A stretch of 64,000 nt of DNA, from positions 2,047-66,046 of the forward strand of contig CAKOKR010000001.1 in assembly GCA_934095965.1 (NCBI GenBank), written 5' to 3'. This document shows, piece after piece, positions 1,317-16,221 of this stretch. Position 1 is the first letter of the stretch; each line of letters begins with the position of its first letter. The position numbers and the translations under genes are program-made. Below the pieces are notes generated by a model, which searched no databases, was not told the origin of the DNA, and saw nothing but the letters and a program-made list of their open reading frames with translations. Origin of the DNA: an uncultured Bacilli bacterium (GTDB lineage: Bacteria; Bacillota_I; Bacilli_A; RF39; UBA660).

Positions 1317-3581
1317 ATGAAAGAAGAATTTATAAAAAAGTTAAATAATAAAGAATATATTTCTAAGTATTTATATCTCAAAACCAATGAAGAAGATTCT
1401 AGTATATTACCATATAATTTTGATATAGATAAATATAATGAAGAAGTAATAAATAATGATTTAATCAAGTATCATGATTATTTTGATAACATGTATAAAG
1501 ACATTGACTCAAATATAAAACTTGATATAGATCAACAAAAAGCAATACTTACCGATGAAGAATATTCATTAATTATCGCCGGTGCAGGAACAGGCAAAAC
1601 CACAACCATGGCATCAAAAATAAAATATCTTGTTGACATAAAAAAAGTAAATCCCAGTGAAATACTAGCTATAAGTTTTACCAAAAAAGCTACCGAAGAA
1701 CTAGAAAAAAGAATAGTAATTGATTTTAACATACCCGCTAAAGTAACAACATTTCATTCTCTAGGTTTCATGTATATCAGAGAAATATTTAAAAATCACA
1801 AATGTTTTGTAGTTGACAATAACACCCGCAACAACATATTTTTAAAATACTTTAAAGAAGAAATATTTCCAAATAAAGAAACAGTTAAAGAGCTACTTTC
1901 GTTATTTAATTCAACTACTGTTAAAAAAATATGGCTATTCGGTGATTACTTTCAAAAAAACTATAATAAATATAATACATTTGATGAATACTTCATAAAT
2001 TACAAAAAAGATAAATTAAAAGAAATACCAGATTTAACAAAATGGTTACAAGAAAGAATAGATAAATCTATAAATAGTGAGGTAATATATACAATTAACA
2101 ATGAATTAGTTAAATCAAAAGGTGAAGCTATAATTGCAAATTTTTTGTTTAAAAATAATATTGATTATGTATATGAAAAAGTCTATGAAAAATTAATGCC
2201 TGATAATAAAACTTATAAACCTGATTTTACCCTTAATCTTGGCGGAGAACCAGTATATATTGAATACTTTGGCTTATCAACATACAAAAGTGATGAACTA
2301 AATAGGTATGAAAAAATAAAAAAACTAAAAGAAGAATACCACTATAAACATCATAATAAATTCATTAAAATAGACTATCAAAAAAATGAAGATTTAGAAA
2401 AAACACTAGCAAGTGAACTAACAAAAATGGGATTTACTTTAAAACCTAAAACAGATATAGAAATATACAACCAAATACTTGATAACAACGAAACATCCCA
2501 AATGTATCCATATCGTGATTTATTATATTCAGTTATTGATCAAATTAAATCATCAAATAAAAGAAAAAAATATATTGAAGAAGTGGATAACTATATCAAA
2601 AAAACAGTATCAATCGAAGAAAAAGAAATGTGTAAAAAACAATTTAAGTATATAAATGAATTTTATATCTATTATCAAAAAGAGTTATATGGAAGTGAAA
2701 CTTATGGATTTGATTTTGCTGACATGATATATTATGCTAACCTATATATAAATAATGTTGATAATAACACAGATTTAAATTTCAAATATATAATTATTGA
2801 TGAATATCAAGATATATCTGAAGATCGTTACATCTTAACAAAAAATGTTGCTAATAAAAATCACGCTAAAGTAGTTGCAGTAGGTGATGATTGGCAATCA
2901 ATATTTTCATTCACAGGTTCAAAGATTGAATACATATATAACTTTTTATCATATTTTCCAACTGCCAAAATATTAAAGATTGCAAAAGCATATCGAAATA
3001 GTAAAGAATTAATCAAGTATTCAAGTGACTTTGTCATGAAAAATGATGAACAAATTAAAAAGGTTTTAATATCTGATAAAGAAAATCCTAATCCAATAAA
3101 GTTTGTAATGTTTGATGATGGCGAAGAAGTATCAAAATTAAAAGAATTAATATTAGCAATTAACCAAAGAAATAAAAATAGTCACATTTTAATACTAGGC
3201 AGAACTAATAGAATAATTGATTCTTTATTTGATGATGCAACATTCATTGATGAGGTTGAAACAAAAATAAAATTCGCAGGTTACAACGATATTGACATTG
3301 ATGGTATGACTATTCATAAATCAAAAGGATTAACTAGTGATGAAGTAATTATAATTGGTCTAGATAATAATTTTCCTAAATCAAACTACGGAGACTTTTG
3401 GTTAAAAGAAATATTTAAAAATAAATGGTATCAAGAAAAAATAGCATTTGCTGAAGAACGTCGTTTATTTTATGTTGCACTAACCAGAACTAAAAACAAT
3501 GTCTATCTCTTAGTTAATAAAAATATATCTAAACGTAGTCCATTTATTAATGAAATTTACAACATTATATTGACAAAATGA
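1317..3581 (+). CDS. UvrD/PcrA-family superfamily-1 DNA helicase with an inserted PD-(D/E)xK-like nuclease module (helicase-IV-like architecture)
   Basis: Walker A IIAGAGTGKTTT. Walker B/DExx IIIDEYQD. C-terminal motif VI VALTRTKNNVYLL. An internal segment GEAIIANFLFKNNIDYVYE...KPDFTL...YIEYFG resembles restriction-endonuclease-fold modules. Confidence 0.8.
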   Translation: MKEEFIKKLNNKEYISKYLYLKTNEEDSSILPYNFDIDKYNEEVINNDLIKYHDYFDNMYKDIDSNIKLDIDQQKAILTDEEYSLIIAGAGTGKTTTMASKIKYLVDIKKVNPSEILAISFTKKATEELEKRIVIDFNIPAKVTTFHSLGFMYIREIFKNHKCFVVDNNTRNNIFLKYFKEEIFPNKETVKELLSLFNSTTVKKIWLFGDYFQKNYNKYNTFDEYFINYKKDKLKEIPDLTKWLQERIDKSINSEVIYTINNELVKSKGEAIIANFLFKNNIDYVYEKVYEKLMPDNKTYKPDFTLNLGGEPVYIEYFGLSTYKSDELNRYEKIKKLKEEYHYKHHNKFIKIDYQKNEDLEKTLASELTKMGFTLKPKTDIEIYNQILDNNETSQMYPYRDLLYSVIDQIKSSNKRKKYIEEVDNYIKKTVSIEEKEMCKKQFKYINEFYIYYQKELYGSETYGFDFADMIYYANLYINNVDNNTDLNFKYIIIDEYQDISEDRYILTKNVANKNHAKVVAVGDDWQSIFSFTGSKIEYIYNFLSYFPTAKILKIAKAYRNSKELIKYSSDFVMKNDEQIKKVLISDKENPNPIKFVMFDDGEEVSKLKELILAINQRNKNSHILILGRTNRIIDSLFDDATFIDEVETKIKFAGYNDIDIDGMTIHKSKGLTSDEVIIIGLDNNFPKSNYGDFWLKEIFKNKWYQEKIAFAEERRLFYVALTRTKNNVYLLVNKNISKRSPFINEIYNIILTK

Positions 3582-3619
3582 TAACATGTGTGTATTATAT
3601 TATCTAAAGAAGGAATAAT

Positions 3620-4102
3620 ATGAATATATTTGTAACATCAGACACACATTTTAATCATAAAAACATAATTAAATATTGCCATAGACCATATAAAGATGTC
3701 GAAGAAATGAACGAAGCAATAATTAGTAATTGGAATAACTCTGTAACAAATGATGACATTATTTATCATCTCGGAGACTTTGGCTTTGGAACTAAAGAAG
3801 AGTTAAAACAAATTTTTAATAGATTAAATGGTCAAAAATATTTAATAATGGGTAATCATGATAAAAAAGTAGGTAGAAATTATTATCTTGAACTAGGTTT
3901 TATTGATGTATATCGCAAGAAATGCCTACTTGATAATTATATTCTAACCCATGAACCAATAGAAGTAGAAAGTGATAAAATAAATCTATATGGTCACATT
4001 CATAATTCTGATATCGATCCTATCTTTGATGATCCAAATCACAAATGTATCTGCCTTGAACAAACTGATTATAAACCACTTTTACTAATGAGGAAAAAAT
4101 AA
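3620..4102 (+). CDS. Small calcineurin-like metallophosphoesterase
   Basis: Motifs SDTHFNH, LGDFGFG and MGNHD match the MPP superfamily signature (D-x-H, GD, GNH[DE]). Confidence 0.75.
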   Translation: MNIFVTSDTHFNHKNIIKYCHRPYKDVEEMNEAIISNWNNSVTNDDIIYHLGDFGFGTKEELKQIFNRLNGQKYLIMGNHDKKVGRNYYLELGFIDVYRKKCLLDNYILTHEPIEVESDKINLYGHIHNSDIDPIFDDPNHKCICLEQTDYKPLLLMRKK

Positions 4103-4989
4103 TGGTTTTATTTGTAAGTGGAAGAACAGATATCATAGCATTTTACACAAAATGGTTTTTAAATAGATTAGATGAAGGCTTCGTTGATGTAAGAAACCCA
4201 TTTAATCCTAATCTAGTAAGTAGAATCAATTTTTCTGATGTTGATTTAATTTTATTCTGCACTAAAAATCCAATTCCAATAGTAAACCACTTAGATAAAA
4301 TACCAAAACCATTTCTATTTCATGTAACAATAACTCCATACAAAAATGATATTGAACCATATGTCCCTTCAAAAACGAAAGTGATTGAAGCTGTCAAAGA
4401 AATATCAAAACAAATTGGTAAAGAAAACATAGTAATAAGGTATGACCCAATTTTCATAAGTGACAAATACACTATTGAATATCACATCAAGGCATTTGAA
4501 AAACTCTTATCACTATTAAATGGTTACGTTAATAAAATAATAATATCTTTTCTTGATGAATATAAAAATGTTTGCAAAAATAAAAATATTTTACGATATA
4601 AAACATTAACAGAAAAAGACTATGAACAAATTGGAACTAACTTTAGTGCCATAGCTAAAAAATATAACACGACAGTTCAAACCTGTTTTGAAGATAGAAA
4701 CTTAACAGAATATGGTTTCATAAAAGGAGAATGCTTATCACATGAACTTGCTTACTACTTAACAGGTAAAAAATATAAAAGTTGGAAATCACGTAAAGGT
4801 GATAAATGCAATTGTGTTGAAATGGTAGATATCGGAGCATACAACACCTGTAAACATTTCTGTAAATATTGTTATGCAAACTATGATGAAAAAAAGGTAA
4901 ATGAAAATTCATTAAAACATAACCCCAATTCATCACTAATAACAGGTACAATTACAGATAAAGATACAATAAAGATAAGAAAAATTTGA
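4102..4989 (+). CDS. DUF1848 family protein with a C-terminal Cys cluster
   Basis: The N-terminus GRTDIIAFYTKWFLNRL and the C-terminal CNCVEMVDIGAYNTCKHFCKYC Cys cluster are typical of DUF1848. Its ATG overlaps the upstream stop (ATGA). Confidence 0.7.
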   Translation: MVLFVSGRTDIIAFYTKWFLNRLDEGFVDVRNPFNPNLVSRINFSDVDLILFCTKNPIPIVNHLDKIPKPFLFHVTITPYKNDIEPYVPSKTKVIEAVKEISKQIGKENIVIRYDPIFISDKYTIEYHIKAFEKLLSLLNGYVNKIIISFLDEYKNVCKNKNILRYKTLTEKDYEQIGTNFSAIAKKYNTTVQTCFEDRNLTEYGFIKGECLSHELAYYLTGKKYKSWKSRKGDKCNCVEMVDIGAYNTCKHFCKYCYANYDEKKVNENSLKHNPNSSLITGTITDKDTIKIRKI

Positions 4990-5042
4990 CAAAATGATAA
5001 TAAAGTGATAGAATATACCCCAATACAAAGGGGTGTTTTTAA

Positions 5043-6725
5043 ATGAATAATCAAAAAATAGAAACAATAAAAAGTCTCTATTCTGGTGCAAAAGCATACA
5101 CTATGTTTATAGTAGAAGAACGTCAACATGATAATGCTAAGGTTGACTATATTTTAGAAGATAAATATTATAATTGTGCAAGGCTTGGATTTATTACCAA
5201 CATAATGCTTGCAATAAAAGAAGAATTAGTAGAAAAAGTATCATATCATAATTTTGAATCACTAGTTTTTAATAATGAACTAGAAAAATCAGTAAAATGT
5301 ATTGCAAGTAAAGTAAGTAATGGTTATAAAATAGATAACTATGTATTTGATACAATACCAAATTTAGTGGCCACTCTAAGAGATAAACTTGCACATGGAA
5401 ACTATATAATATGTAGTAATTACAAAGAAATAACAATAATTCTAGATGATAAAGGTACCACAATTAATATTGAAATAGACAAATTAGCAAAATTTGTTAC
5501 AAATGCAATGATAAGTTTTATAAAAAAACAAAATCCAAAAGAATTTGTTCGTAAAAACATTATGTTTAGCAAAATAAAAAATGGTGATAAGCCATTGTTA
5601 TCAAAATCAGAAGTAAGGTTTGTAAGTAAAAATGCAAAAAGAGTAACAATCAAGTTCAAAAGAAAAGATGGTAAAGATTTAACAGAAAAAGAAACAGAAA
5701 GATTAGAAGAATATTGTGACATTTTAAAAAAAGATAGTAGCAATGAAACTATTGAAAAAATAAAAAAAATAACAATGTATACATACGATTTTACATACGA
5801 AAGAAAACCAATTGCTAACATAAATTATGATTTAATAGCAGATGTATTAATGTCAAGTTACAAAAATGTTAAACTTGAACGCCAATTAATATGTATAGCA
5901 TTTTTAATTGAAAAAATGATTGATGATACGAATACTTTACAAGAAATAATGGCATCAATCAACAATCTAATTTTGCTTAAAGCAATTTATGAAAATAAAA
6001 GTGTTGACATGAATTATGTCTCAACAAAATTAGATGGTAAAGAAATATCCAACGGTATTATGGAATTAGCAAATGCAGCAATAACATTATTCCAAACATT
6101 ATTTTCATATGCAAATGATGATGTATTCAAAAATGATTTTGAGTATCAACAAACACAAAGTAATGGACTAGACTACGGGAAATTAGATTTATCAAATATA
6201 AAAGTATTAGTATATCCAACAGATAAAAGTCCAATTGATGTATATCTAGAGCAAAAGAAAAAAGCTGATAGAGAATATGCAAATATTCAAAAAAACATTG
6301 CTAAAGTGATTGAAAACAAAAATAATGCTATTAAAAATAACAATCAAAATGCAATTTCAAATATAAATCAAGTATTAAATACTTTAAAACAAACTGAACA
6401 AATAAAATTGCAAGATAAAATAAAATGTGATACAGAATATAATAACGTATGCACTTATGAACAAACAAATAAAAAACATCTAATTAATAGATCAATAATT
6501 AATGGAATAAGAAATTGTATTGCACACGGAAACTATCGAATCGTTCATGGAAAAACTGTAAGTGATGCAACATTAGTATTTGAAGATATACATAACAAAA
6601 AGTTAACATTCAAAGCAGTAGTAAATCCTATTGATTTTATAAATATGATTTATGAAAATGAATGGGTTGTAACTGAATTTTTAAATAATTTAACAACTCA
6701 AAACACATTAACTAGACAAAAATAG
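5043..6725 (+). CDS. Hypothetical protein with two HEPN-like Rx4H motifs (putative RNase of an Abi or defence type)
   Basis: RDKLAHGNY lies at about aa 113-121 and RNCIAHGNY at about aa 490-498. Both are R-x4-H followed by GNY. The RBS is AAAGGGGTG. Confidence 0.5.
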   Translation: MNNQKIETIKSLYSGAKAYTMFIVEERQHDNAKVDYILEDKYYNCARLGFITNIMLAIKEELVEKVSYHNFESLVFNNELEKSVKCIASKVSNGYKIDNYVFDTIPNLVATLRDKLAHGNYIICSNYKEITIILDDKGTTINIEIDKLAKFVTNAMISFIKKQNPKEFVRKNIMFSKIKNGDKPLLSKSEVRFVSKNAKRVTIKFKRKDGKDLTEKETERLEEYCDILKKDSSNETIEKIKKITMYTYDFTYERKPIANINYDLIADVLMSSYKNVKLERQLICIAFLIEKMIDDTNTLQEIMASINNLILLKAIYENKSVDMNYVSTKLDGKEISNGIMELANAAITLFQTLFSYANDDVFKNDFEYQQTQSNGLDYGKLDLSNIKVLVYPTDKSPIDVYLEQKKKADREYANIQKNIAKVIENKNNAIKNNNQNAISNINQVLNTLKQTEQIKLQDKIKCDTEYNNVCTYEQTNKKHLINRSIINGIRNCIAHGNYRIVHGKTVSDATLVFEDIHNKKLTFKAVVNPIDFINMIYENEWVVTEFLNNLTTQNTLTRQK

Positions 6726-6814
6726 TAACTATAGTTACCCGCGTATATACCTAGAAAAATAAGAAAATGTAATAGGTTAAAATAACTATTGCATTTTTTA
6801 TTTAAAAAAATAAC

Positions 6815-6843
6815 TTGTATATCAAACATACGTGTGCTATAAT
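6815..6843 (+). promoter_or_regulatory. Sigma-A-like promoter (TTGTAT - 17 nt - TATAAT, with TGc extended)
   Basis: Consensus spacing, upstream of the 6954 gene. Confidence 0.5.
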
Positions 6844-6953
6844 AGATGTATCAATTCAAAAAAGTTTTGGAATTGATAACTGTATGTTGATTAAGTATTC
6901 ATATTGAAAAAGGTACAAAACATTTAAAAATTTTGTTATCTTTTGGAGGTAAT

Positions 6954-7322
6954 ATGAAAACAGAAATAACAAAATACTTACATCAACATAAATCTACGAA
7001 TTTCTCTAGTCTTCTGTTTTTATATATTGATAAAAGTGGGCTAAAGGATTCAATGATTTACAAAAAAGCTGGCATCGATAGAAAATTATTTTCAAAAATT
7101 AGATGCAACGATTATATTCTAAACAAAAAAACTATTATAAGGTTATGCTTTGTTTTAAAATTATCACTAGATGAAGCAAATAAACTTTTAAATAGTGCAG
7201 GATATGCATTAAGTAAAAGTCAAGACTTTGATTTAATCATTCAATATTGTTTAGAAAAAAAAATATATGACTTGTATATCGTAAATGAAATGCTAGAAAC
7301 TTTTTTAAAAACTGTTCTTTAA
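6954..7322 (+). CDS. Hypothetical small protein (possible HTH-like)
   Basis: GGAGG RBS 6 nt upstream of the ATG at 6954. The long ORF listed from 6933 is less likely to be real. Confidence 0.4.
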   Translation: MKTEITKYLHQHKSTNFSSLLFLYIDKSGLKDSMIYKKAGIDRKLFSKIRCNDYILNKKTIIRLCFVLKLSLDEANKLLNSAGYALSKSQDFDLIIQYCLEKKIYDLYIVNEMLETFLKTVL

Positions 7323-7335
7323 CAGTATTTTTTTT
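7308..7335 (+). terminator. Rho-independent terminator
   Basis: aaACTGTTctttAACAGTattttttttt. Confidence 0.5.
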
Positions 7336-7449
7336 TGCAATTTTTCCCTAAGATATGCCAAAAACATGTCGCCAAAATTTGTCGCTTTTAAAGCGACCAC
7401 ATTACCCATCTTTTCTAGTATAATTGATTTATCGAATGGAGGAAATAAT

Positions 7450-7959
7450 ATGAAAACAAATATGCAAATGTTAAGAAATTTAATTAGAGAGGAGGAAGAA
7501 AATCTAGATTTAATAAGATTTAGTAGTCAAGATTATTTATTTAATAAAGTAAATGAAGAATTAAATGGTAAAGTCACAATTCTTGTCGATAACACAGAAA
7601 AAATGTTAGAAAAACTAAAGGAGGTAGAAGATTTAACAAATAAAATTAATTACCTTAAAAGAACTTTGTTCGAAAAAGAAAATGAACTAAGACTAGAAGA
7701 TGGAAGAACAGTGAAGGAAGCATCAGTAGAAAATAAATACAACTTAAAGTTAAAGTATTATTATGAAGCTCTTTTACGTAAAGAAAATAAAAAAATAAGA
7801 ATGACAGATTCTAAAAGTGCATACTTCTTAGAATATAAATTAAACGTTGATAGAAATGAAATTAAAGAAAAACTAAAGAAAATCAGTGAAGAAATAAGAA
7901 ATACAACTAATAAAATAATTAGATTAAATGGCGAATTTTTTGAAATAGATTTACCATAA
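7450..7959 (+). CDS. Hypothetical coiled-coil protein
   Basis: aatGGAGGaaataatATG. The upstream ORF extension lacks an RBS. Confidence 0.4.
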   Translation: MKTNMQMLRNLIREEEENLDLIRFSSQDYLFNKVNEELNGKVTILVDNTEKMLEKLKEVEDLTNKINYLKRTLFEKENELRLEDGRTVKEASVENKYNLKLKYYYEALLRKENKKIRMTDSKSAYFLEYKLNVDRNEIKEKLKKISEEIRNTTNKIIRLNGEFFEIDLP

Positions 7960-8140
7960 TGGTACCATAAAGTTATTGAATGGTTTAAATTAAGTAAAAC
8001 TTAAGCCAGTACTTTATAAAACAGATGATTACGTACTTCAAAATAAGAAGTCTAACCACCTCGTTACCTAAAGTTTTATAAAGTAGGTAAGTGCATCTCA
8101 ACTTGGGATGCACTACCAAATATTAGAAAGGAAGGTTATT

Positions 8141-8446
8141 ATGAATAAATATGTATATGAAACAGAAGATAAAATAAAAATGGGATTAGTATTAAATTTA
8201 GATAAAGTATACAAGTCTTTAAAAAATTTTAAAGATTGCTATAAAAGAATTTATAACAGAATGGATTATCGTAGCACCAAAAAGTATTATTACAAAGGTA
8301 AAATATATACGGAAGAGGAGTTGCTTGAAAACAATTTTGAAAAAGATGAAGAAGGTATATTCGGTTGCATGCCGATATACACAGAAGAAGAAATATTAAC
8401 AAAAATAAAAGATTATTTATACGAAGTATGGAATTTAATAGAATAG
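8141..8446 (+). CDS. Hypothetical protein
   Basis: RBS gaaAGGAAGGttattATG. Confidence 0.4.
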   Translation: MNKYVYETEDKIKMGLVLNLDKVYKSLKNFKDCYKRIYNRMDYRSTKKYYYKGKIYTEEELLENNFEKDEEGIFGCMPIYTEEEILTKIKDYLYEVWNLIE

Positions 8447-8457
8447 GAGGTAAAAAG

Positions 8458-9126
8458 ATGTCACGTAAAAGAGAAATATATAATTTAGAATATTATATAG
8501 AGGATGGAGAAACTCTAGAAGAATTAGCAGATAGAATTATCAAGGATATAAAGAAAAATTTTAAAACAAATAATCAAAAAGAAAAATATCCAACTGAAGA
8601 ATTAAAAACAATAACAAAAATAACATATTATGATAAATTAAAAGTAGATGCTGATGATCTAATTCAAGGATTGGTAGTGGAAGTTAATAATGAACCATTT
8701 ATTATTTTAGATATAAGCTATGGTTTAAGTATTAGCACATTAGATATGATAACAAATGAATTAAAAAATAATAAATCAAGAAACTTCACAATTTATGAAA
8801 TTAATAAAAATGATTTTCAATCTGATATAAAATTTGGAGAAATAAAAAAAGTTCAACTTTACCGTAAGGCTGAACTAGAAAATAAAATAAACGGAAAAAC
8901 ACTTTGTAAATCTGATATAATTGAATTTACAGATTACAATGACAAGAAATTTTACGTTGATTACATTAACAATGATATATATAAAAGAGAAAATCTCTAT
9001 AAAATAAATAAACATGGTAAAATAATAACAGTATTTGAAAGACATAAATTAAATAGTGTAAATATAAAAACATTTGACACACTAACATACAAGTTAACAA
9101 AAATAACAAAAAACTTAGAAATATAG
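8458..9126 (+). CDS. Hypothetical protein
   Basis: RBS ataGGAGGtaaaaagATG. There is a 12-nt gap after the previous gene. Confidence 0.4.
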   Translation: MSRKREIYNLEYYIEDGETLEELADRIIKDIKKNFKTNNQKEKYPTEELKTITKITYYDKLKVDADDLIQGLVVEVNNEPFIILDISYGLSISTLDMITNELKNNKSRNFTIYEINKNDFQSDIKFGEIKKVQLYRKAELENKINGKTLCKSDIIEFTDYNDKKFYVDYINNDIYKRENLYKINKHGKIITVFERHKLNSVNIKTFDTLTYKLTKITKNLEI

Positions 9127-9264
9127 TTTACATGTAAAGAATAAATGTACAGAAAAAATAGTAACAATAATCTTTCATAATTAAAACTTTACAAAGAAAT
9201 GAAAAAAGTAATAGTTCCAAATAATCATTTGTGGTACAATATAGATAAGAAAAGAGGTAAAAAT

Positions 9265-9621
9265 ATGGAAGTAAATGATTATTTGGTGACTAAAGACAGA
9301 GAAGACCTTTTGTCATCACTAAAAAAGGTAAACAGAATAATAATAAACAAGAAACTAAGAGAATTAGATTTGGAAAATCTTCAAGAATTAAAAAAGTATA
9401 TCTTAGAACACTTAAAGGACAGTATCAAAAATATAAAGGATAGATGGTTACTTAACGTTCATTTTGAAACACTTTTGACAAATGAAAACAAAACTTTGTC
9501 ACTTGATCCAAGTGATATTGAAAACTTTATAGTATTTCTTTATGAAGAAGATGGAGAAATAAAATATTATATGCCAACTGAAGTAAAAGATATAATAAAA
9601 AGGTCAATAAAAGTAAAATAG
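9265..9621 (+). CDS. Hypothetical protein
   Basis: RBS aaAGAGGtaaaaatATG. Confidence 0.35.
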   Translation: MEVNDYLVTKDREDLLSSLKKVNRIIINKKLRELDLENLQELKKYILEHLKDSIKNIKDRWLLNVHFETLLTNENKTLSLDPSDIENFIVFLYEEDGEIKYYMPTEVKDIIKRSIKVK

Positions 9622-9684
9622 TAATAATTTCTAGTGATTTTTATTTCTTTTAGTAGTATAATAAAAAGTAGAAATGAGGTAATT

Positions 9685-9843
9685 ATGGAAGAAAAAAATA
9701 AATTAGAAACTTGCAGTTGTGAAGAATGCAGTTGTGAAGAATGCAATTGCGAAAACTGTGATTGCGAAGAATGCGATTGCGAAGACTGTAAATGTCAAAG
9801 TTGTGATTGCGAAGAATGCAACTGTGAAGATTGCGATTGTTAA
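9685..9843 (+). CDS. Cys-rich acidic repeat peptide (52 aa, 18 Cys; eight 5-aa C-x-C-E-x repeats plus a terminal CDC)
   Basis: RBS aatGAGGTaattATG. The sequence is MEEKNKLETCSCEECSCEECNCENCDCEECDCEDCKCQSCDCEECNCEDCDC. Its own hairpin plus T-run terminator follows at 9851-9880. Confidence 0.5.
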   Translation: MEEKNKLETCSCEECSCEECNCENCDCEECDCEDCKCQSCDCEECNCEDCDC

Positions 9844-9850
9844 ATATGAA

Positions 9851-9880
9851 AGTTCTGTACTAAAATACGGAACTTTTTTA
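9851..9880 (+). terminator. Rho-independent terminator after the Cys-repeat peptide gene
   Basis: AGTTCTGTActaaaaTACGGAACTttttt. Confidence 0.5.
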
Positions 9881-9891
9881 ATGGAGGTAAA

Positions 9892-10092
9892 ATGGATAGT
9901 AGAACAGGTTATAAACTTAGATTATTAAGAACTAAATATGGATTAACTCAAAAAGATTTAGCAAACCTTTTAAACAAGAGTATTTCTCAAATATCAAATT
10001 ATGAACGCGGAAGAAGAAATTTAGGCAAAAATGAAATAGAAAAAATATGTAATCATCTTAAAATAAATAGAGAATTTTTTGATAATAATTGA
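9892..10092 (+). CDS. XRE-family HTH transcriptional regulator (short, 66 aa)
   Basis: GLTQKDLANLLNKSISQISNYERGRR is a classic HTH_3/Cro-C1 signature. RBS taatGGAGGtaaaATG. Confidence 0.75.
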   Translation: MDSRTGYKLRLLRTKYGLTQKDLANLLNKSISQISNYERGRRNLGKNEIEKICNHLKINREFFDNN

Positions 10093-10114
10093 AAAAATTA
10101 ACAGAAATAAATAA

Positions 10115-10150
10115 AATCAGTCTAGAAAAATCCAGACTGATTAATTATTA
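10115..10150. terminator. Bidirectional rho-independent terminator
   Basis: AATCAGTCTagaaaaatccAGACTGATT. A T-run lies on the plus side and an A-run upstream, so it also serves as a minus-strand T-run. Confidence 0.55.
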
Positions 10151-10213
10151 TCTTTTTCTATAATCAAAGTATTCCCAGATTACATAAATAAGAAAATTTA
10201 AAAAATCTAACAT
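10148..10213 (-). CDS. 21-aa hydrophobic micro-ORF (MLDFLNFLIYVIWEYFDYRKR), possible small toxin or leader peptide
   Basis: Perfect SD AAGGAGG 5 nt upstream of the ATG on the minus strand. The ORF ends at the bidirectional terminator. Confidence 0.3.
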   Translation of the reverse strand: MLDFLNFLIYVIWEYFDYRKR

Positions 10214-10334
10214 AATGCCTCCTTAATTATAGAGACCCTGATTAAATTATTATATATGATGTATCAATTTTTGTAAAGATAGCTAGACATAATTATCAAA
10301 ATATATTATGATATTCATATGAAAGGATGATAAT

Positions 10335-11219
10335 ATGAAAAGTAAAGTATATTTCATAAAAGAAATAACAAGTGAAAGTTTAATCAAAATTTATGAAAGT
10401 TTAAATCAAGAATTAAAAGGAAGAGTTGCAATAAAAATATCAACTGGTGAACCCGGAGGACATAATTTCTTAAATCCAAATTTAATAAAAGATTTAGTTA
10501 ACAAATTAAATGGAACAATAGTTGAATGTTGCACAGCATATGCTGGAAAAAGAGAACATCCATCTGATCACTGGCAAGCAATCAAAGACCATGGTTTTTA
10601 TGACATTGCTCCTTGCGATATCATGGATGAAGAAAAAGAGATAACTATTCCAATTAATGGTGGTAAACACTTAAATGGAATAAATTATGTTGGAAGTCAT
10701 ATTAAAAATTATGATTCCATGCTTATGTTGTCACATTTTAAAGGACATGTAATGGGTGGCTTTGGTGGAGCTTTAAAAAATATGTCAATCGGAGTATCAT
10801 CAAGAAATGGAAAAGCTTGGATTCACTCAGCTGGAAAAACAACGGTTCCCGAAGAATGTTGGAAACTTGAAACAAAACAAGATGATTTTCTTGAAAGTAT
10901 GGCAGAAGCAGATAAATCAGTAGTAGATTATTTCAAACCAGAAAATATGTTATATATTAATGTTGCAAATAATATTTCAATTGATTGTGATTGTGATTCA
11001 AATCCGAAAGAACCAGAAATTGCAGATATAGGTATATTTGCATCAATAGATCCAGTTGCACTAGATAAATGTTGTTATGATACAATAATGAGTCTAATAG
11101 AAGTTGGAGCAAATTCGCTAAAAGAAAGAATGCTTGATAGACATGCAATTCACACAGTTGAAGAAGCAGAAAAGTTAGGATTAGGAACAACTGACTATGA
11201 ATTAATAAATATTGATTAG
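10335..11219 (+). CDS. DUF362 domain protein
   Basis: MKSKVYF...AIKISTGEPGG...ECCTAYAG... matches the family pattern. RBS GAAAGGATGataatATG. Confidence 0.6.
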   Translation: MKSKVYFIKEITSESLIKIYESLNQELKGRVAIKISTGEPGGHNFLNPNLIKDLVNKLNGTIVECCTAYAGKREHPSDHWQAIKDHGFYDIAPCDIMDEEKEITIPINGGKHLNGINYVGSHIKNYDSMLMLSHFKGHVMGGFGGALKNMSIGVSSRNGKAWIHSAGKTTVPEECWKLETKQDDFLESMAEADKSVVDYFKPENMLYINVANNISIDCDCDSNPKEPEIADIGIFASIDPVALDKCCYDTIMSLIEVGANSLKERMLDRHAIHTVEEAEKLGLGTTDYELINID

Positions 11220-11229
11220 GAGGCACAAC

Positions 11230-11715
11230 ATGGAAAAACTTGAAGAAATAGTAAAAATATTAAAAGAAAAAAATAAATATGTTTCAACAATGGAATCTTG
11301 TACTGGAGGTGGACTTGTTAATGCAATAACAAACATCCCCGGAGCAAGTGAAATTTTAAAATTTAGTGCAGTAACTTATTCAAATGAATTTAAAATTAAA
11401 ATGGGAGTACCAAAAGAAACCATTGATACTTATTCTGTATATAGTATGGAAACTGCAATCGATATGTCAAAGAAAATATCTGAATTTACGAATTCAAATT
11501 ATGGTATTGGTATAACAGGCAAATTAAATAGAGCAGATATTAATAATTTATCTGGTGATGATAATATGGTATATTTTAGTATTTATAATATGGATACAAA
11601 TACCAATTATAATGACTATTTAAGAGTTTCAAAATCATCAAGAAAAGAAAATAAAGACGAAGTAATAACAAAAATTGTTAATAACTTTTATGAAATATTA
11701 AAAAAAGAAGATTAA
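11230..11715 (+). CDS. CinA C-terminal-domain (PncC-like nicotinamide-nucleotide amidase family) protein
   Basis: ESCTGGGLVNAITNIPGAS...VTYSN signature. RBS ttAGGAGGcacaacATG. Confidence 0.7.
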   Translation: MEKLEEIVKILKEKNKYVSTMESCTGGGLVNAITNIPGASEILKFSAVTYSNEFKIKMGVPKETIDTYSVYSMETAIDMSKKISEFTNSNYGIGITGKLNRADINNLSGDDNMVYFSIYNMDTNTNYNDYLRVSKSSRKENKDEVITKIVNNFYEILKKED

Positions 11716-12653
11716 AGTAAATCTCCTTGATAGATATTTCTTTTTGCCATTTCTTGGTCAATTCCATTTAAAACCATAAACTTTTTTATGAGCCATTCTG
11801 GTGCCACAAGTTCATTTAGTTCTGGGTCTCCGGTAATTCTCATAACAACGACATCAGGATTAAGCAATCTTAATTGATCGCATACAATATCAATGTACTC
11901 CTCTCTAGTTAGAATATGAAATTTGTTATTTTCATAATAACTAGCTAACGGAGTATTTTTTGCTATATAAAGCATATGAATTTTAATTCCATCTATTTTT
12001 AAATCATTAACAAATTTTATTGTATTTATCATATCTTCTTTTGTTTCATATGGAAGTCCATTAATAATGTGAGCAACTACGAATATATTTCTTTCATGTA
12101 GTTTTTCAACAGCTTCTTTAAATATTTCTTTATCATGACCTCGATTTATAAATTTTAATGTATGATTGTTACTACTTTGAAGTCCAAGCTCTACAATTAG
12201 AAAAGTTTTTTTGTTTAATTCATCTAAATAATCCAGCCATTCATCACTTAAACAATCAGGTCTAGTAGCAATATCAATTCCAATAACTTTAGGTAAAAGA
12301 AGTAATTTATCTATATACATTTTAACTAAATTTTTATCATTATAAGTATTCGTACCAGATTGAAAATAAGGAATGTATAAACTATCTGGCCATTTTTGTT
12401 CCATAATTTTTCGTCCCTTTTCAAATTGTTCTAAAATATCTAAGGTATTATCACTGATACCAGCAATAGACTTATTTGAACAATATATGCATCCACCATT
12501 ATATTGATTAGGACATGTACTATTTATATCTAAAGGAACTTTAAAAACTTTTTGACCAAATTTCTTTTTAAAAAAGTAATTTAAAGTATGATATCTTTTA
12601 TTGTCTAAAGTGTTTTTAAACATAGTTTTCACCTCGTATATATATTTTAGCAC
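11712..12653 (-). CDS. TIGR01212-family radical SAM protein
   Basis: CPNQYNGGCIYCSN Cys motif. The length and the remaining sequence match the YhcC/TIGR01212 family. Confidence 0.7.
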   Translation of the reverse strand: MLKYIYEVKTMFKNTLDNKRYHTLNYFFKKKFGQKVFKVPLDINSTCPNQYNGGCIYCSNKSIAGISDNTLDILEQFEKGRKIMEQKWPDSLYIPYFQSGTNTYNDKNLVKMYIDKLLLLPKVIGIDIATRPDCLSDEWLDYLDELNKKTFLIVELGLQSSNNHTLKFINRGHDKEIFKEAVEKLHERNIFVVAHIINGLPYETKEDMINTIKFVNDLKIDGIKIHMLYIAKNTPLASYYENNKFHILTREEYIDIVCDQLRLLNPDVVVMRITGDPELNELVAPEWLIKKFMVLNGIDQEMAKRNIYQGDLL

Positions 12654-12689
12654 GTAAAATTATAAAATAAAAGTTGTTATTTTACAAAA

Positions 12690-12702
12690 AAGTTGCTATA
12701 AT
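12690..12702 (+). promoter_or_regulatory. -10 element (TATAAT) of the tRNA promoter
   Basis: agTTGCTATAATtatattgtt lies immediately upstream of the tRNA 5' end. Confidence 0.4.
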
Positions 12703-12711
12703 TATATTGTT

Positions 12712-12787
12712 GCTGAAATAGCTCAGTTGGTAGAGCAATGCCCTCGTAACGCATAGGTCGTAAGTTCAAGCCTTACTTTCAGCACCA
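12712..12787 (+). tRNA. tRNA-Thr (anticodon CGU), CCA encoded
   Basis: Cloverleaf: acceptor GCTGAAA/TTTCAGC, D-arm GCTCAGTTGGTAGAGC, anticodon loop CTCGTAA, T-arm GTAAGTTCAAGCCTTAC, and a 3' ACCA. A hairpin plus T-run follows. Confidence 0.8.
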
Positions 12788-12874
12788 TTAAGAAATCTAA
12801 TCTCACAACGTGGGATTTTTTTTGTTGAAAAATATGTCGACAAATGTTAAAATTAAAACAAGGAAGTGAAGTTA

Positions 12875-14026
12875 ATGAATAAGAAAAAAATAATTATATT
12901 AATGTTAGGAATATTTTTTGCATTTCCAAGTGTTGCTCTAGCACACCCAGGAAGATTAGATTCAAATGGTGGACATTATTGTCACAAAAATTGTGAAAAA
13001 TGGGGACTAGATTATGAAGAATACCATTATCATAGTGGAAATACTTACAGAAATAGAAAAGGGCAAGTATATAATAATGATGGAACATTAATTAAAGATG
13101 TAGAAACTCCATCAACCAACAATAATAATACCAATAATAATAATGTTAACAACAATTATCAACCATTGGTAAAAAGTAGTGATAATACATTAAAAAGTGT
13201 AACAATCGATGGAACAAGCATAAGTGTTTCACCAAATATGACATATGAAACCAGTAATCATAATCCAATTATTTTAGCAAATGCTAACCATTATAAAGCT
13301 AAAGTATCAATTAATAGACCAAGTAGTTACAAATTATCAGATGTAAATGAAGTAACAATAATTGTAACCGCAGAAAATGGAAGCACGAAAGAATATAAAT
13401 TATTAATAAAAATATTAGATAGTGATACGTCATTAAAAGAAGTATTAATAGATAATGAAAAAATAGATGTATTAGATATAATGGATTTTAAAACCACAAA
13501 AGAAAATATAAAAGTTACAGCAGTTCCAACAAGTGAAAAAGCAAAAGTGGAAATAACAAACTCAGATAAATTAAAGATTGGTTTAAATGAAATAATTATT
13601 AAAGTTACTGCAGAAGATAAATATATAACTAAAGAGTATAAAATAAATGTTGAAAGAAGTAAGATGTTAAGTAATAATACGAATCTAACAATGCACGTTA
13701 ATGATGAGTTAGTAACATTTAATAATTTCAAAAGTGATACAGTATATATAAATAGTAATGTTGATAAAATTAAAATAACATATAATCTTGAAGATGAAGC
13801 ATCATCGATAGATTTAAAATATGATGAAAATATTAAAGTGGGAAATAATACTATAAAATTTGTTGTAACCGCAGAAAATGGAGAAAAACAAGAATACACT
13901 TTGATAGTTCATCGCTACAGTAAAATAGAAGATACAGTTTATACAATTCTAGGACTTGGTGTACTTGGTGGAATAACTTTTGGTATAGTTAAAGGTGTAA
14001 AATTTACTAAAAAGAAAATGTTTTAA
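12875..14026 (+). CDS. Secreted YHYH-domain protein with repeated Ig/cadherin-like beta-sandwich segments and a C-terminal TM anchor
   Basis: Signal peptide KKKIIILMLGIFFAFPSVALA. YHYH motif HYCHKNCEKWGLDYEEYHYHSG. Repeated ...EYKLLIKI.../...EYTLIVHR... units. A C-terminal hydrophobic stretch plus KFTKKK. Confidence 0.6.
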   Translation: MNKKKIIILMLGIFFAFPSVALAHPGRLDSNGGHYCHKNCEKWGLDYEEYHYHSGNTYRNRKGQVYNNDGTLIKDVETPSTNNNNTNNNNVNNNYQPLVKSSDNTLKSVTIDGTSISVSPNMTYETSNHNPIILANANHYKAKVSINRPSSYKLSDVNEVTIIVTAENGSTKEYKLLIKILDSDTSLKEVLIDNEKIDVLDIMDFKTTKENIKVTAVPTSEKAKVEITNSDKLKIGLNEIIIKVTAEDKYITKEYKINVERSKMLSNNTNLTMHVNDELVTFNNFKSDTVYINSNVDKIKITYNLEDEASSIDLKYDENIKVGNNTIKFVVTAENGEKQEYTLIVHRYSKIEDTVYTILGLGVLGGITFGIVKGVKFTKKKMF

Positions 14027-14091
14027 TTTAATATATACAAAAGATTATACCTTATGATATAATAAATATTATCAATGAAGGAGGAATACAT

Positions 14092-14757
14092 ATGCGTGTA
14101 TATGGAATGAATGTTTTAAAAGAATTAGACAAGAAAAAAATAAAAAAAGTATTTACATCAAGAAAAGAAGTATGTAAATATTGTAGTGAAAATAAAATTA
14201 AATATGAACTTGTTGATAATCATTTATTAAATAAAATGTGCGAATATAATCATCAAGGAGTGGTAATTGATGCATTTGATTATGACTATTATACCCTAAA
14301 AGACCTTGAAGGTGACTTAGTATTAATTCTTGATCATCTAGAAGACCCACACAACTTCGGAGCAATAATAAGAACATGTGCATCTGTAGGAATAAAATCA
14401 ATAATAATTCCCAAAGACCGTAGTGTTGGTGTAACAGATGTTGTTGTTAAAACCAGTGTTGGAACAATAAACTATGTCAAAATAATAATGGTTAATAATC
14501 TTGTAGCAACAATAAAAGCATTACAAAAGGATGGCTTCTTTGTATATGCTGCATCAATGGAAGGAACAGACTTTAGAAAAATAGACTATAGCGATAAAGT
14601 TGCCCTTGTAATAGGTAATGAAGGTTCCGGAGTAAGTAGATTAGTAAAAGAAAGTAGTGATTGTTTAATAAGTATTCCTATGAATAAAAATGTAGAAAGT
14701 TTAAATGCATCAGTAGCAGCAAGCATATTAATATACCATCTAGGTATGCATGAATAA
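14092..14757 (+). CDS. rlmB: 23S rRNA (guanosine-2'-O)-methyltransferase, SpoU/TrmH family (RlmB-like)
   Basis: SpoU motifs LVLILDHLEDPHNFGAIIRT, LVIGNEGSGVS and IPMNKNVESLNASVAASI. The conserved rlmB-sigH-secE-nusG context supports the call. Confidence 0.8.
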   Translation: MRVYGMNVLKELDKKKIKKVFTSRKEVCKYCSENKIKYELVDNHLLNKMCEYNHQGVVIDAFDYDYYTLKDLEGDLVLILDHLEDPHNFGAIIRTCASVGIKSIIIPKDRSVGVTDVVVKTSVGTINYVKIIMVNNLVATIKALQKDGFFVYAASMEGTDFRKIDYSDKVALVIGNEGSGVSRLVKESSDCLISIPMNKNVESLNASVAASILIYHLGMHE

Positions 14758-15361
14758 CATAAGTGATCAAGAACTTATAATGCTTCTGCGAGAACAAAAT
14801 GAAGATGCTGAAAAAATTCTATATGAAAGATACTTTAAAATAATCAAAAAAATAATAAGTCTATACAAATATACACTAAGAGAATTAAATATTGATAAAA
14901 GCGACTTATTCACTAGCTGTATAGATACATTTTATTATGCATTAAATAATTATTCAAATCTTAGTGACGCATCATTTAATACTTATGTAAGTCTATTAGT
15001 AAAACGCAAGATTAAAAAAACTATTATTAAAAAATTGAATAAAAGTCACTATATAACATGTATATCATTAAATACTTATGAAGATAGAAATCATGAAATA
15101 AAAGATATAAAAATAAAAGATAATTTAGAAAAAATTTGTAATGAAGAAGAAGTTCAAGAAATTAACAAAATAATTTTAGATAAATTAAATAAAAAAGAAT
15201 TAACTTCATTAGTATTATTTCTTCAAGGCTACTCTTACAATGAAATGTCAAAGATGTTGCAAAAAAGTTACAATCAAGTATATTATGAAATAGCCACATT
15301 AAAGAAAAAAATAGTGGGTGAAATTAAGAAAAATAGTACTAAATCGCTTGCTTTTTCTTAA
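14750..15361 (+). CDS. sigH: Sigma-70 family sigma factor, SigH-like
   Basis: Region 2 and region 4 HTH (LTSLVLFLQGYSYNEMSKMLQKS). Its position between rlmB and secE supports the call. Confidence 0.65.
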   Translation: MNNISDQELIMLLREQNEDAEKILYERYFKIIKKIISLYKYTLRELNIDKSDLFTSCIDTFYYALNNYSNLSDASFNTYVSLLVKRKIKKTIIKKLNKSHYITCISLNTYEDRNHEIKDIKIKDNLEKICNEEEVQEINKIILDKLNKKELTSLVLFLQGYSYNEMSKMLQKSYNQVYYEIATLKKKIVGEIKKNSTKSLAFS

Positions 15362-15418
15362 TGATTGTGCTATATTATAAATGAACACGAAAGTGTTTTT
15401 TTAAATGGAGGTTTATTT

Positions 15419-15682
15419 ATGGCAAAAAAAGAAGAAACTAAAAAGGATTTAGTAAAAAGTAAAGAAGAAAAAATGCCTAAAAAGAAAAATGTCAAAAAAG
15501 AAAAGAAAGGACCAAAAGAAAGCTATTTAAAAAAAGTAAGAAAAGAAATGAAATTAGTTAAATGGCCTGAAGGAAAAGAAGTATTAAAATATACTATATC
15601 AACAATTGTATTTTGTTTAGTATTATGTGCTTTATTCATGCTATTAAATCTAATGTTATCAGCAGTTAAGGGGTGGATATAA
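15419..15682 (+). CDS. secE: Preprotein translocase subunit SecE
   Basis: Lys-rich N-terminus plus a single C-terminal TM (VKWPEGKEVLKYTISTIVFCLVLCALFM). RBS aaatGGAGGtttatttATG. The longer ORF from 15365 lacks an RBS. Confidence 0.8.
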   Translation: MAKKEETKKDLVKSKEEKMPKKKNVKKEKKGPKESYLKKVRKEMKLVKWPEGKEVLKYTISTIVFCLVLCALFMLLNLMLSAVKGWI

Positions 15683-16221
15683 TGGAAGAAAAACAATGGT
15701 ATGTAGTTAATACTTATTCAGGACATGAAAATAAAGTTAAAGAAAAACTAGAAGCAAGAACAGAATCTATGGGAATGCAAGATTACATTTTCCGTGTAAT
15801 TGTACCTGAAACAACAGAAGTTGAAGTTAAAGATGGTGTAAAAAAAGAAAAAGTTAAAAAAATGTTTCCAGGTTATGTTTTAGTTGAAATGATTATGACT
15901 GATGAAGCTTGGTATATTGTTAGAAATACACCGGGGGTTACAGGATTTATCGGTTCAAGTGGAAAAGGAGCAAAGCCAACTCCATTATTACCACAAGAAA
16001 TTGATAGAATTTTAGCTAATATGGGAATGAGTAGAGTAGATGCATCAACTGAATTACAAGTTGGTGACACAGTTAATATTATTGATGGACCATTCAGCGG
16101 TATGACTGGTAAAGTTGATAACATTGATACTGAAAATAACAGATTAAATATTATAATTGATTTATTTGGACAAGAAACAAACGTTGATGTTGAAGTATAT
16201 CAAGTTAGCAAAACATATTAA
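15682..16221 (+). CDS. nusG: Transcription termination/antitermination factor NusG
   Basis: NGN domain WYVVNTYSGHENKV and KOW motif GDTVNIIDGPFSGMTGKV. The ATG overlaps the secE stop (TAATG). Confidence 0.9.
   Translation: MEEKQWYVVNTYSGHENKVKEKLEARTESMGMQDYIFRVIVPETTEVEVKDGVKKEKVKKMFPGYVLVEMIMTDEAWYIVRNTPGVTGFIGSSGKGAKPTPLLPQEIDRILANMGMSRVDASTELQVGDTVNIIDGPFSGMTGKVDNIDTENNRLNIIIDLFGQETNVDVEVYQVSKTY

Follow-up and report, generated by a model that had tools for sequence, protein, structure and literature searches.

A putative standalone tandem-HEPN ribonuclease from an unnamed protein family of small-genome gut Bacilli

The killing module of numerous immune systems, among them Cas13, Csm6, RNase L, PrrC, ApeA and DARNA, is a ribonuclease (RNase) of the HEPN superfamily. 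One HEPN active site nearly always needs two HEPN domains. Outside Cas13 the presence of both domains in one chain is rare, and the examples found are known from predictions only. This report describes a gene in a 64,000-nucleotide (nt) stretch of DNA from an uncultured Bacilli bacterium (contig CAKOKR010000001.1), the whole of which is termed the window. The gene encodes a protein of 560 amino acids (aa) with a HEPN-type motif toward each end. The protein may be a self-contained, single-chain tandem-HEPN pseudo-dimer, i.e. a guide-independent RNase of the defence or toxin type. The probability of this reading, with its putative RNase activity and putative role in defence, is put at roughly 0.55.

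Intramolecular dimerisation of the HEPN domains of Cas13 is cited in PMC12373285. CnuE of the type III-A CoCoNuTs is a predicted non-CRISPR protein with coiled-coil segments, two HEPN domains in one chain and predicted RNA targeting (PMC11090510); among precedents for a non-Cas chain that carries two HEPN domains, it comes closest. DARNA (PD-T7-3), PD-T4-2 and ApeA are autonomous single-gene HEPN proteins of about 450–560 aa, in which a non-catalytic domain senses infection and RNA (tRNA) is then cleaved, leading to abortive infection (bioRxiv 10.64898/2026.02.22.705581). HEPN domains are recognised by a polar residue (N, D or H) directly after the R of the Rx4-6H motif and by a conserved acidic residue in helix 2 (PMC3710099).

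The open reading frame and its duplicated HEPN domain

The open reading frame at positions 5043–6725 (+ strand) has an ATG start, 560 codons and a stop codon. Its parts are as follows.

5043..6725, + strand: tandem-HEPN protein gene, 560 aa (open reading frame confirmed; homologues; AlphaFold2 model)
5043..5537, + strand: N-terminal HEPN-like domain, aa 1–165 (predicted secondary structure, E60, hhalign)
5379..5405, + strand: HEPN motif 1, R113-D-K-L-A-H118-G-N-Y, at the end of helix 3 (position confirmed, conserved)
5538..5825, + strand: central alpha/beta domain with a KRKDG motif, aa 166–261 (AlphaFold2 secondary structure)
5826..6227, + strand: helical first part of the C-terminal HEPN domain, aa 262–395 (conservation, profile alignment)
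6228..6467, + strand: coiled-coil hairpin, aa 396–475 (predicted helices at 396–431 and 435–475)
6468..6722, + strand: C-terminal HEPN core, aa 476–560 (helix 3 at 477–494, beta-meander at 498–527, helix 4 at 529–559)
6510..6536, + strand: HEPN motif 2, R490-N-C-I-A-H495-G-N-Y, closing helix 3 of the C-terminal domain (position confirmed, conserved)

An earlier note, made from the sequence alone, had placed two Rx4H motifs at nt 5379–5405 and 6510–6536. Both positions match exactly, and R113-DKLA-H118-GNY and R490-NCIA-H495-GNY are the only two R-x4-H sites in the protein, which contains 7 His and 15 Arg residues in all. Shuffling the residues produced at least two Rx4H sites in 1.2% of trials, and no case of two Rx4HG sites in 20,000 trials. 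The chance expectation for two copies of RxxxAHGNY is about 8e-13. The conservation of the motifs in related sequences appears to be a stronger argument for genuine sites than these shuffle statistics. An antisense open reading frame at 5420–5821 (133 aa) is considered spurious; it is not conserved in the related loci L001 or L005.

A search of 5.8 billion proteins (90% clusters) gave 183 relatives at E ≤ 1e-3, almost all of 553–572 aa and aligned end to end. A profile search of 1.84 billion 50%-identity representatives gave 371 proteins, 178 of them at E ≤ 1e-30; the 150 listed matches have lengths of 511–607 aa, mostly 530–600 (truncated sequences aside). The hosts are metagenome-assembled genomes labelled “uncultured Bacilli/Tenericutes”, Clostridium sp. 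CAG:609 and Mycoplasma sp. CAG:472. No source of the protein clusters has a name for the members. This is a previously unnamed family of ~555 aa, found almost only in small-genome gut Bacilli.

Conservation was counted over 131 family representatives that are ≤50% identical pairwise. R113 is present in 127 of these (the remaining four have K) and H118 in 128, R490 in 130 and H495 in 129. An N directly follows the R in 115 representatives at motif 1 and in 122 at motif 2 (N491), and the G after the H is found in 126 (G119) and 124 (G496). Other near-invariant positions are K59/E60, F350, Y356, N482, F513, D515 and F523. E60 is invariant in two alignments and present in 123 of the 131 representatives, and D359 is near-invariant in a 28-sequence alignment. 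The earlier note had assigned the motifs to the HEPN Rx4-6H signature and had called for a search for homologues; in that search they stand as near-invariant motifs of the R-[N/D]-x3-H type.

The two sites tend to disappear together: H118 is absent in only three members, and two of these (P0151 and P0239) are the two that also lack H495. This joint loss bears on the question of a composite site.

An AlphaFold2 model built on the 28-sequence alignment has a predicted local distance difference test (pLDDT) score of 89.8 and a predicted template modelling (pTM) score of 0.86; a model of the isolated N-terminal domain (pLDDT 90.3) has the same secondary structure as in the full model. The predicted elements of the N-terminal domain are helix 1 (positions 3–28), helix 2 (40–62, with K59/E60 at its end), a beta-rich insert (63–102), helix 3 (105–117), a beta-meander (121–144) and helix 4 (145 to 160 in one reading and to 163 in another). 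In the model each of the two motifs ends a helix (105–117 and 477–494), and this is followed by a three-strand beta-meander and then by a long helix. Each helix 3 is preceded by an insert, the beta-rich segment 63–102 in the N-terminal domain and the coiled coil 396–475 in the C-terminal domain. The first part of the C-terminal domain (aa 262–395) includes a conserved LFSYANDD helix (F350, F354, Y356, D359/D360) and a GLDYxKLDLS loop. The acidic helix-2 residue is E60 in the N-terminal domain, and D359/D360 occur in the aligned C-terminal helix.

The two domains are related to each other. In hhalign the N-terminal domain aligns with the C-terminal core at 95% probability (E 3e-8), and when the coiled coil 396–475 is excised the alignment extends to ~150 columns (93% probability). 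Without the coiled coil, the SYANDD helix (D359/D360) pairs with the K59/E60 helix, and also with the PKER helix of pEK499_p136, a single-domain HEPN family (PF18736). The SYANDD helix is thus the counterpart of the K59/E60 helix, and this makes the coiled-coil hairpin an insertion that separates helices 2 and 3 of the C-terminal domain. By these profile alignments the halves of the protein are duplicates of each other. The placement of the motifs at opposite ends of the protein, as the earlier note had it, reflects two mutually homologous domains, one N-terminal and one C-terminal.

A profile of pEK499_p136 was built from 120 relatives of the type protein of plasmid pEK499 (L012:41727-42224), which itself matches PF18736 at E 1e-49. 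Against this profile the C-terminal core reaches 94% probability (E 9e-8); its 59 aligned columns take in the motif, the strands and the beginning of helix 4. The coiled-coil-free C-terminal domain aligns at 89% over 151 columns. Weak precomputed matches to PF18736 (PF18736.8) are present in 108 of 120 listed homologues. When 33 N-terminal domains were scanned singly against Pfam, MAE_28990 was matched in eight (best E 2.4e-4), RiboL-PSP in three, pEK499_p136 in two, and Csm6_HEPN and Apea in one each. All of these matches are sub-threshold; the five families are HEPN families, and the first three are the commonest in the scan. In the PDB the C-terminal profile finds its best match in Csm6 (5yjc_A), placed exactly on the catalytic motif INGLRNSIAH, at an E-value of 0.069 that is sub-threshold; the N-terminal domain profile gave nothing relevant there.

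The N-terminal domain displays all four sequence and topology features of HEPN according to PMC3710099, and the polar residue after the R is present at both sites (RDKLAH and RNCIAH). On these sequence and predicted-topology criteria the protein belongs to the HEPN superfamily, with motifs of the catalytic type. Its nearest family, as judged by profile comparison, appears to be pEK499_p136, with a weaker likeness to MAE_28990 and RiboL-PSP HEPN. The window protein has no match to PF18736.6 at E ≤ 10 (gathering threshold 26.6 bits), and its relative P0026 reaches 12.3 bits. It is not a member of PF18736 as defined, because of the sub-threshold score and the different architecture.

Searches with the whole window protein against Pfam, NCBIfam, PADLOC and PHROGs gave no significant whole-protein match, and phmmer matched no PDB chain. 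The full-length family profile matched only coiled-coil proteins in the PDB, and the stretch 6228..6467 likewise matches only coiled-coil proteins in PDB and Pfam searches. Two PHROG matches (GP41 and DNA-methyltransferase) are sub-threshold, lie on the coiled coil and were set aside. No helix-turn-helix (HTH) domain was matched in the Pfam scan and Abi_2 (PF07751) gave no match at E ≤ 10. The ApeA, PD-T4-2 and PD-T7-3 models were not matched, PADLOC-DB v2.0.0 giving 0 families at E ≤ 0.1. For the central domain (aa 166–261) neither Pfam nor the PDB nor PADLOC gave a match. This domain varies more than any other part of the protein and is a candidate sensing or specificity module.

Proposed mechanism, allelic divergence and the composite site

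The proposed mechanism starts with a pEK499_p136-like HEPN domain that would have been duplicated within the gene, so that its copies now occupy both ends of the protein. The ancestral domain would have run from helix 1 through an acidic helix 2 and an insert to helix 3, which ended in R-N-x3-H-G, and on through a beta-meander to helix 4. A fast-evolving alpha/beta domain would now separate the copies, the C-terminal one having acquired the coiled-coil hairpin in its helix-2/helix-3 insert. The two HEPN domains are suggested to pack together so that the Rx4H motifs form one metal-independent RNA-cleaving site, as in Cas13, with no guide RNA. The intramolecular composite site is proposed because of the analogy with characterised HEPN RNases. 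By analogy with DARNA/PD-T7-3, the site may be inactive until the central domain or the coiled coil senses a cue of infection or stress. RNA, plausibly tRNA or mRNA, would then be cleaved and the cell brought to arrest, in the way of abortive infection. The earlier note had also favoured a standalone Abi-like or toxin RNase, and this is the best reading here as well. The gene has its own putative promoter and no common partner, and its function is assigned by analogy.

The divergence of the gene was measured against a syntenic Clostridium sp. CAG:609-type genome (L001/L013). Eighteen flanking proteins are 76–100% identical between the two, mostly 90–98% (e.g. helicase 98%, DUF1848 94%, the next downstream open reading frame 98%, NusG 100%). 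The tandem-HEPN protein has the same length and position in both, with 63.6% identity. DNA identity is 89–98% outside the gene, falls to 50–86% from about nt 5200 to 6690 and is 96% at 6693. By the Nei-Gojobori method the HEPN gene has a synonymous divergence (dS) of 0.92 and a non-synonymous divergence (dN) of 0.26 (dN/dS 0.28 overall), compared with dS of 0.11–0.32 and dN of 0–0.04 in nine flanking genes, for which identities of 83–100% are given. The central domain (residues 166–261) has the highest dN/dS (0.47) and the lowest identity (51%). A second lineage, of the CAG:472 type, has HEPN proteins that are 75–93% identical, compared with 95–100% for HrcA, GrpE and DnaK.

Both synonymous and non-synonymous divergence are inflated, thus the two alleles are much older than the surrounding genomes. 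The pattern points to allelic replacement or to a long-lived polymorphism with breakpoints inside the open reading frame. Such excess divergence is typical of genes in genetic conflict and would be the signature of an arms race.

A more far-reaching form of the proposal is held tentatively and well short of even odds. In it the protein would represent a new class of single-protein immune sensor-effector: the hypervariable central domain would directly recognise a phage cue and open the composite site, and balancing or diversifying selection driven by phages would maintain old, highly divergent alleles at a single chromosomal site. If true, this would be a second independent route, besides that from AbiF to Cas13, to single-chain effectors with two HEPN domains. 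The restriction of the family to uncultured reduced-genome gut Bacilli, together with allelic divergence in conserved synteny, points to an unexplored part of phage defence in the microbiome of the human gut.

Several observations weigh against the reading as a standalone defence RNase or limit it. The window protein is below every Pfam HEPN threshold, and its N-terminal domain aligns with the pEK499_p136 profile at a probability of only 11% (in this alignment the helix-2 KE is in register with PKER, and motif with motif). Foldseek gave nothing at E ≤ 0.001 for the full model against the PDB and BFVD, or for the N-terminal domain model against the PDB. The fold check that the earlier note had proposed is therefore divided, the predicted secondary-structure topology fitting HEPN and the structure search giving no significant match. 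No experimental characterisation of the family or of pEK499_p136 was found in the literature. Phage, plasmid and IMG/VR collections contain no homologue, thus mobility is suggested only by the variable context. Many loci lie among housekeeping genes, which would fit a resident cellular function too, and in the Mycoplasma sp. CAG:472-type lineage the gene has a 4-nt overlap with an upstream phosphodiesterase gene.

Of the alternatives, the best placed, though unlikely, is a HEPN RNase with active sites formed between chains. Here a homodimer or oligomer would pair N-terminal with N-terminal domains, C-terminal with C-terminal, or the two head to tail (N-C′), and the chains would be joined through the coiled-coil hairpin as oligomerisation element, much like DARNA dodecamers or Las1/Csm6 dimers. 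Outside Cas13, nearly all HEPN RNases that have been characterised act as homodimers or higher oligomers (PMC3710099, bioRxiv 10.64898/2026.02.22.705581, PMC12373285), and a long coiled-coil hairpin is present. One member (P0157) has lost H118 and keeps its C-terminal motif intact, and the four members with K113 point the same way. Hetero-oligomers could be formed by tandem paralogue pairs, which occur in three loci (L019 7986–11342, L052 1008–4341 and L055 2301–5634); the pairs are divergent in sequence, arranged head to tail 4–9 nt apart, and keep both motifs in each copy. However, two homologous HEPN domains in one chain is the Cas13 arrangement for an intramolecular site, and the catalytic His is gone from both motifs together in P0151 and P0239. 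The single-chain model is also confident globally (pTM 0.86), with which additional oligomerisation is still compatible. Mean-field direct coupling analysis of N–C domain contacts (286 sequences, effective number 148) was uninformative, its top pairs being gap or indel columns.

Genomic context, promoter and neighbouring genes

The neighbourhood set draws on GTDB species genomes for 54 loci and on metagenome contigs for 11; in these, genes were called and neighbours clustered. The family has a patchy spread, the 54 loci being found among 185,579 species genomes. Clustering at 55% identity gives ~32 lineages with more than 25 different upstream neighbours. No partner gene is common to the ~32 lineages, and no neighbour cluster is shared across them. 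The majority of neighbours are housekeeping genes: hrcA-grpE-dnaK, alanine racemase (alr), uvrC, recG, ftsK, leuS, signal peptidase, P-type ATPase and phosphodiesterase. Unrelated defence genes are also found as neighbours: AbiEi/Eii, a retron reverse transcriptase, PDC-S01, a D12 methyltransferase, and a PemK/Lit-like/NERD/restriction-modification island.

A housekeeping RNase for RNA processing or turnover in reduced-genome Bacilli, comparable to the eukaryotic Las1, is improbable. It would fit the mostly housekeeping neighbours, the stable position of the gene across several species of the CAG:472-like lineage with the overlap upstream, and the lack of phage or plasmid copies in the collections searched. 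On the other hand the distribution is patchy and the position differs in nearly every lineage. Divergence is 3–8 times (synonymous) and at least six times (non-synonymous) that of the flanks and is confined to the open reading frame, and such a conflict-type pattern argues against a housekeeping role. There are also tandem paralogues, two members in which both catalytic motifs are degenerate, and clear defence islands around the gene in several lineages.

Four of these contexts will be described. In the CAG:472-type loci (L008/L009/L010/L043-L049, about 5600–9665) the overlapped gene encodes a type I phosphodiesterase with a faint PglZ match. It overlaps two small membrane-protein genes, whose products are highly variable between species (27–100% identity), and lies directly upstream of hrcA-grpE-dnaK. 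This context recalls the “Pgl components” reported for pEK499_p136 in 2013 (PMC3710099). A BREX/Pgl link based on the Phosphodiest/PglZ (faint) neighbour was not adopted; other BREX genes are absent there.

In L025 a retron-type reverse transcriptase gene (6959–7924; PADLOC RT_Ec107-like, E 5e-125) lies 73 nt upstream of a family member (8001–9683). It could be a neighbouring defence system, or part of a retron with a tandem-HEPN effector; the latter idea was not adopted, as the reverse transcriptase is directly upstream at this one locus only.

The 32%-identical relative in L005 lies in a dense defence island (4054–16853). The island consists of a PemK toxin, a protein with HTH and Peptidase_U49 (Lit-like) domains, DUF1848, the tandem-HEPN gene, a NERD and Zn-ribbon protein, Eco57I-type and C5 methyltransferases and an HNH protein.

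In L011/L034/L028 (two lineages) the gene for a protein of 1320–1333 aa ends 10–12 nt upstream of the family member. This protein has a C-terminal calcineurin-like phosphoesterase domain and no PADLOC match.

Around the window gene the following signals are present.

4986..5014, + strand: promoter-like site with an extended -10 (TG), TTGACA-17-TAGAAT (agrees with the consensus at 11 of 12 positions; located in the 53 nt between DUF1848 and the HEPN gene)
5015..5036, + strand: short CCCC/GGGG hairpin with a T-run behind it, in overlap with the ribosome-binding site (terminator-like scan, sequence reading)
6757..6803, + strand: AT-rich terminator-like hairpin, core stem 6768–6775/6786–6793, followed by TTTTTTATTT (RNA fold, sequence reading)

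Both L013, the 64%-identical allele, and L005, the 32%-identical relative, retain TTGACA and TGnTAnAAT and show comparable CCC...GGG pairing. The ribosome-binding site, AAAGGGGTG, is 7–8 nt before the ATG and is overlapped by the hairpin at 5015..5036, which could be a terminator of the upstream operon or a mask over the ribosome-binding site. The consensus terminator scan passes over the hairpin at 6757..6803 because its stem has fewer than three G-C pairs, thus this hairpin is weak evidence. A separate promoter-like element for the next gene can be read in the sequence downstream of it. With its own putative promoter, a terminator-like hairpin and no common partner gene, the gene looks autonomous, as judged from these elements.

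Restraint of a constitutively transcribed HEPN RNase would be needed, and this is the argument for a toxin-antitoxin pair in which the antitoxin would be an unrecognised small adjacent protein or a non-coding RNA, as in AbiF/abiF RNA or HEPN-MNT (MNT, minimal nucleotidyltransferase). This reading is quite unlikely. AbiF and HepT are controlled by an RNA antitoxin or an MNT partner (bioRxiv 10.64898/2026.02.22.705581, PMC12373285), the intergenic region 6726–6953 downstream of the window gene folds better than shuffles (z = -2.9), and small open reading frames follow the gene in some loci. However, there is no neighbour cluster common across lineages, and several loci leave no room for an RNA gene, with gaps of 0–12 nt downstream and 1–12 nt upstream. 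Gaps of 0–12 nt on either side at many loci exclude a conserved flanking RNA gene. Rfam at gathering score finds a tRNA only in the whole window, with no abiF motif (RF03085), and finds nothing at E ≤ 5 over 4400–7400. Tandem Repeats Finder (TRF) gave no tandem repeats flanking the gene, and the annotated neighbours have no MNT or other nucleotidyltransferase domain.

The earlier note had suggested a partnership with the adjacent DUF1848, helicase and metallophosphoesterase genes, so that the protein would be the effector of a multi-gene system with a UvrD/helicase IV-like helicase. This is very unlikely. The four genes share a strand, and only 53 nt separate DUF1848 from the HEPN gene. One other clade (L005–L007) likewise has DUF1848 next to the family gene, in L060 DUF1848 is found three genes upstream, and the helicase and DUF1848 match the PADLOC GajB, RTasHel and RTasDUF1848 models. 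Against this, the gap holds the gene's own conserved putative promoter. The helicase and metallophosphoesterase genes accompany the HEPN gene only in the window's clade, and DUF1848 in only two of the ~32 lineages, which lie side by side when clustered by identity. In L001/L013 helicase-metallophosphoesterase and DUF1848-HEPN are split apart by a block that contains AbiE. DUF1848 is 94% identical where HEPN is 64% (syntenic genomes) and 69% where HEPN is 32% (L005), therefore the two are not co-evolving. The suggestion is not upheld in view of the conserved promoter-like site, the upstream neighbours that change across lineages and the unequal identities.

These neighbours form a tight operon in the window at 1317–4989, whose products are the helicase of 754 aa, a small metallophosphoesterase of 160 aa and DUF1848 of 295 aa. 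The genes for the last two overlap, and the PADLOC matches given above are those of this operon, which may be a separate repair or defence module. A 522-nt copy of the 3′ part of the DUF1848 gene, 90.8% identical (453–974 compared with 4474–4995), lies upstream of the helicase within an annotated 191-aa open reading frame at 393–968. In L001/L013 a 99-aa 5′ DUF1848 fragment follows the metallophosphoesterase gene, and a block of AAA_18, AbiEi, AbiEii and a 237-aa protein precedes the full DUF1848. Recombination around a variable defence island appears to use the DUF1848 copies as its substrates.

The next gene downstream (6933–7322, 122–129 aa) matches only the C-terminal part of the 626-position phrog_4031 (E 2e-8) and is 98% identical to its L001 counterpart, in contrast to the adjoining HEPN gene. 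A 15-nt/45-nt tandem repeat at 9634–9928 (TRF array 9712–9839) encodes Cys-rich (CNCEEC-like) repeats in small overlapping open reading frames.

Least credible is a miniature RNA-guided Cas13-like effector with its array or guide encoded elsewhere: the HEPN domains do occupy the two extreme ends of the chain, N- and C-terminal, and are linked by a partly helical stretch, as in Cas13b-type effectors, but no CRISPR-like array is present in the 64-kb window (TRF) or in a k-mer scan that covered the window together with 65 related loci (1.02 Mb), the window has no cas genes, no Cas13 family is matched in NCBIfam or PADLOC at E ≤ 0.1 (libraries assumed to hold Cas13 models), no flanking non-coding region is conserved, and 560 aa is shorter than the known compact Cas13 variants. 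The earlier note had likewise found neither array nor cas genes, which the array scans and family searches bear out.

Comparison with known systems

The proposed single-chain RNase would be compact (560 aa), derived from one intragenic duplication and free of any guide RNA or partner gene, and would thus be well suited to the study of two questions: what keeps an intramolecular HEPN site off and what then turns it on, and how tandem-HEPN architectures originate. If the protein is active, its small size is of possible interest for RNA-cleaving tools or reporters.

pEK499_p136 (PF18736, “HEPN family nuclease”, e.g. WP_000528932.1 of E. coli plasmid pEK499) shares with the window protein a helix 3 ending in (I/M)RNS(I/V)AH, followed by helix 4, and between these helices a beta-hairpin or meander with a hydrophobic-x-F-x-D pattern. 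Some family loci recall the context of pEK499_p136, i.e. restriction-modification genes and a Pgl-like phosphodiesterase (PMC3710099). pEK499_p136 proteins are single-domain, about 155–170 aa (92–200 aa in the 120 listed homologues) and mostly proteobacterial, whereas the window protein has two such domains together with the central alpha/beta domain and the coiled-coil insert. The motif of the window family is also extended to AHG(N/D)(Y/F), unlike that of pEK499_p136.

A likeness to AbiD/F or Cas13, to which the earlier note had drawn attention, gives way to pEK499_p136 as the nearest family; Abi_2, Cas13 models and the abiF motif are all unmatched. AbiD/AbiF (Abi_2) proteins do share an RN-x2-AH-type HEPN motif and occurrence in Bacillota, and a role in abortive infection or as a toxin is proposed here too (PMC12373285). 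AbiF is a single-HEPN homodimer neutralised by its RNA, whereas the window gene has neither an Abi_2 match nor abiF RNA nearby. In HEPN-MNT (HepT/MntA) the antitoxin is an adjacent minimal nucleotidyltransferase; none was found among the annotated neighbours of the window gene or its family.

DARNA, PD-T4-2 and ApeA supply the functional model adopted for the window protein. Each has one HEPN domain and forms its sites by homo-oligomerisation, and their non-catalytic domains are unrelated to those of the window protein.

CnuE has an N-terminal winged helix-turn-helix (wHTH) domain, one Rx4H and one shortened RxH motif, and is encoded with its obligatory partners, the CnuH helicase and McrBC homologues. 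In the window protein both motifs are Rx4H and no wHTH was detected, and the annotated neighbours include no McrB or McrC.

Cas13 shares the presence of two HEPN domains in one polypeptide, with R-N-x3-H-type motifs far apart, and a composite site would be expected for the window protein as well. The window protein differs in its much smaller size and in having no CRISPR array, cas gene or Cas13 model match. Its HEPN domains are clear duplicates of each other by profile alignment, and no CRISPR RNA-binding domains were recognised in it. The catalytic module is thus a familiar one. The novelty lies in an architecture with a duplicated domain, in the organisation as a standalone gene, in a narrow host range and in hypervariable alleles.

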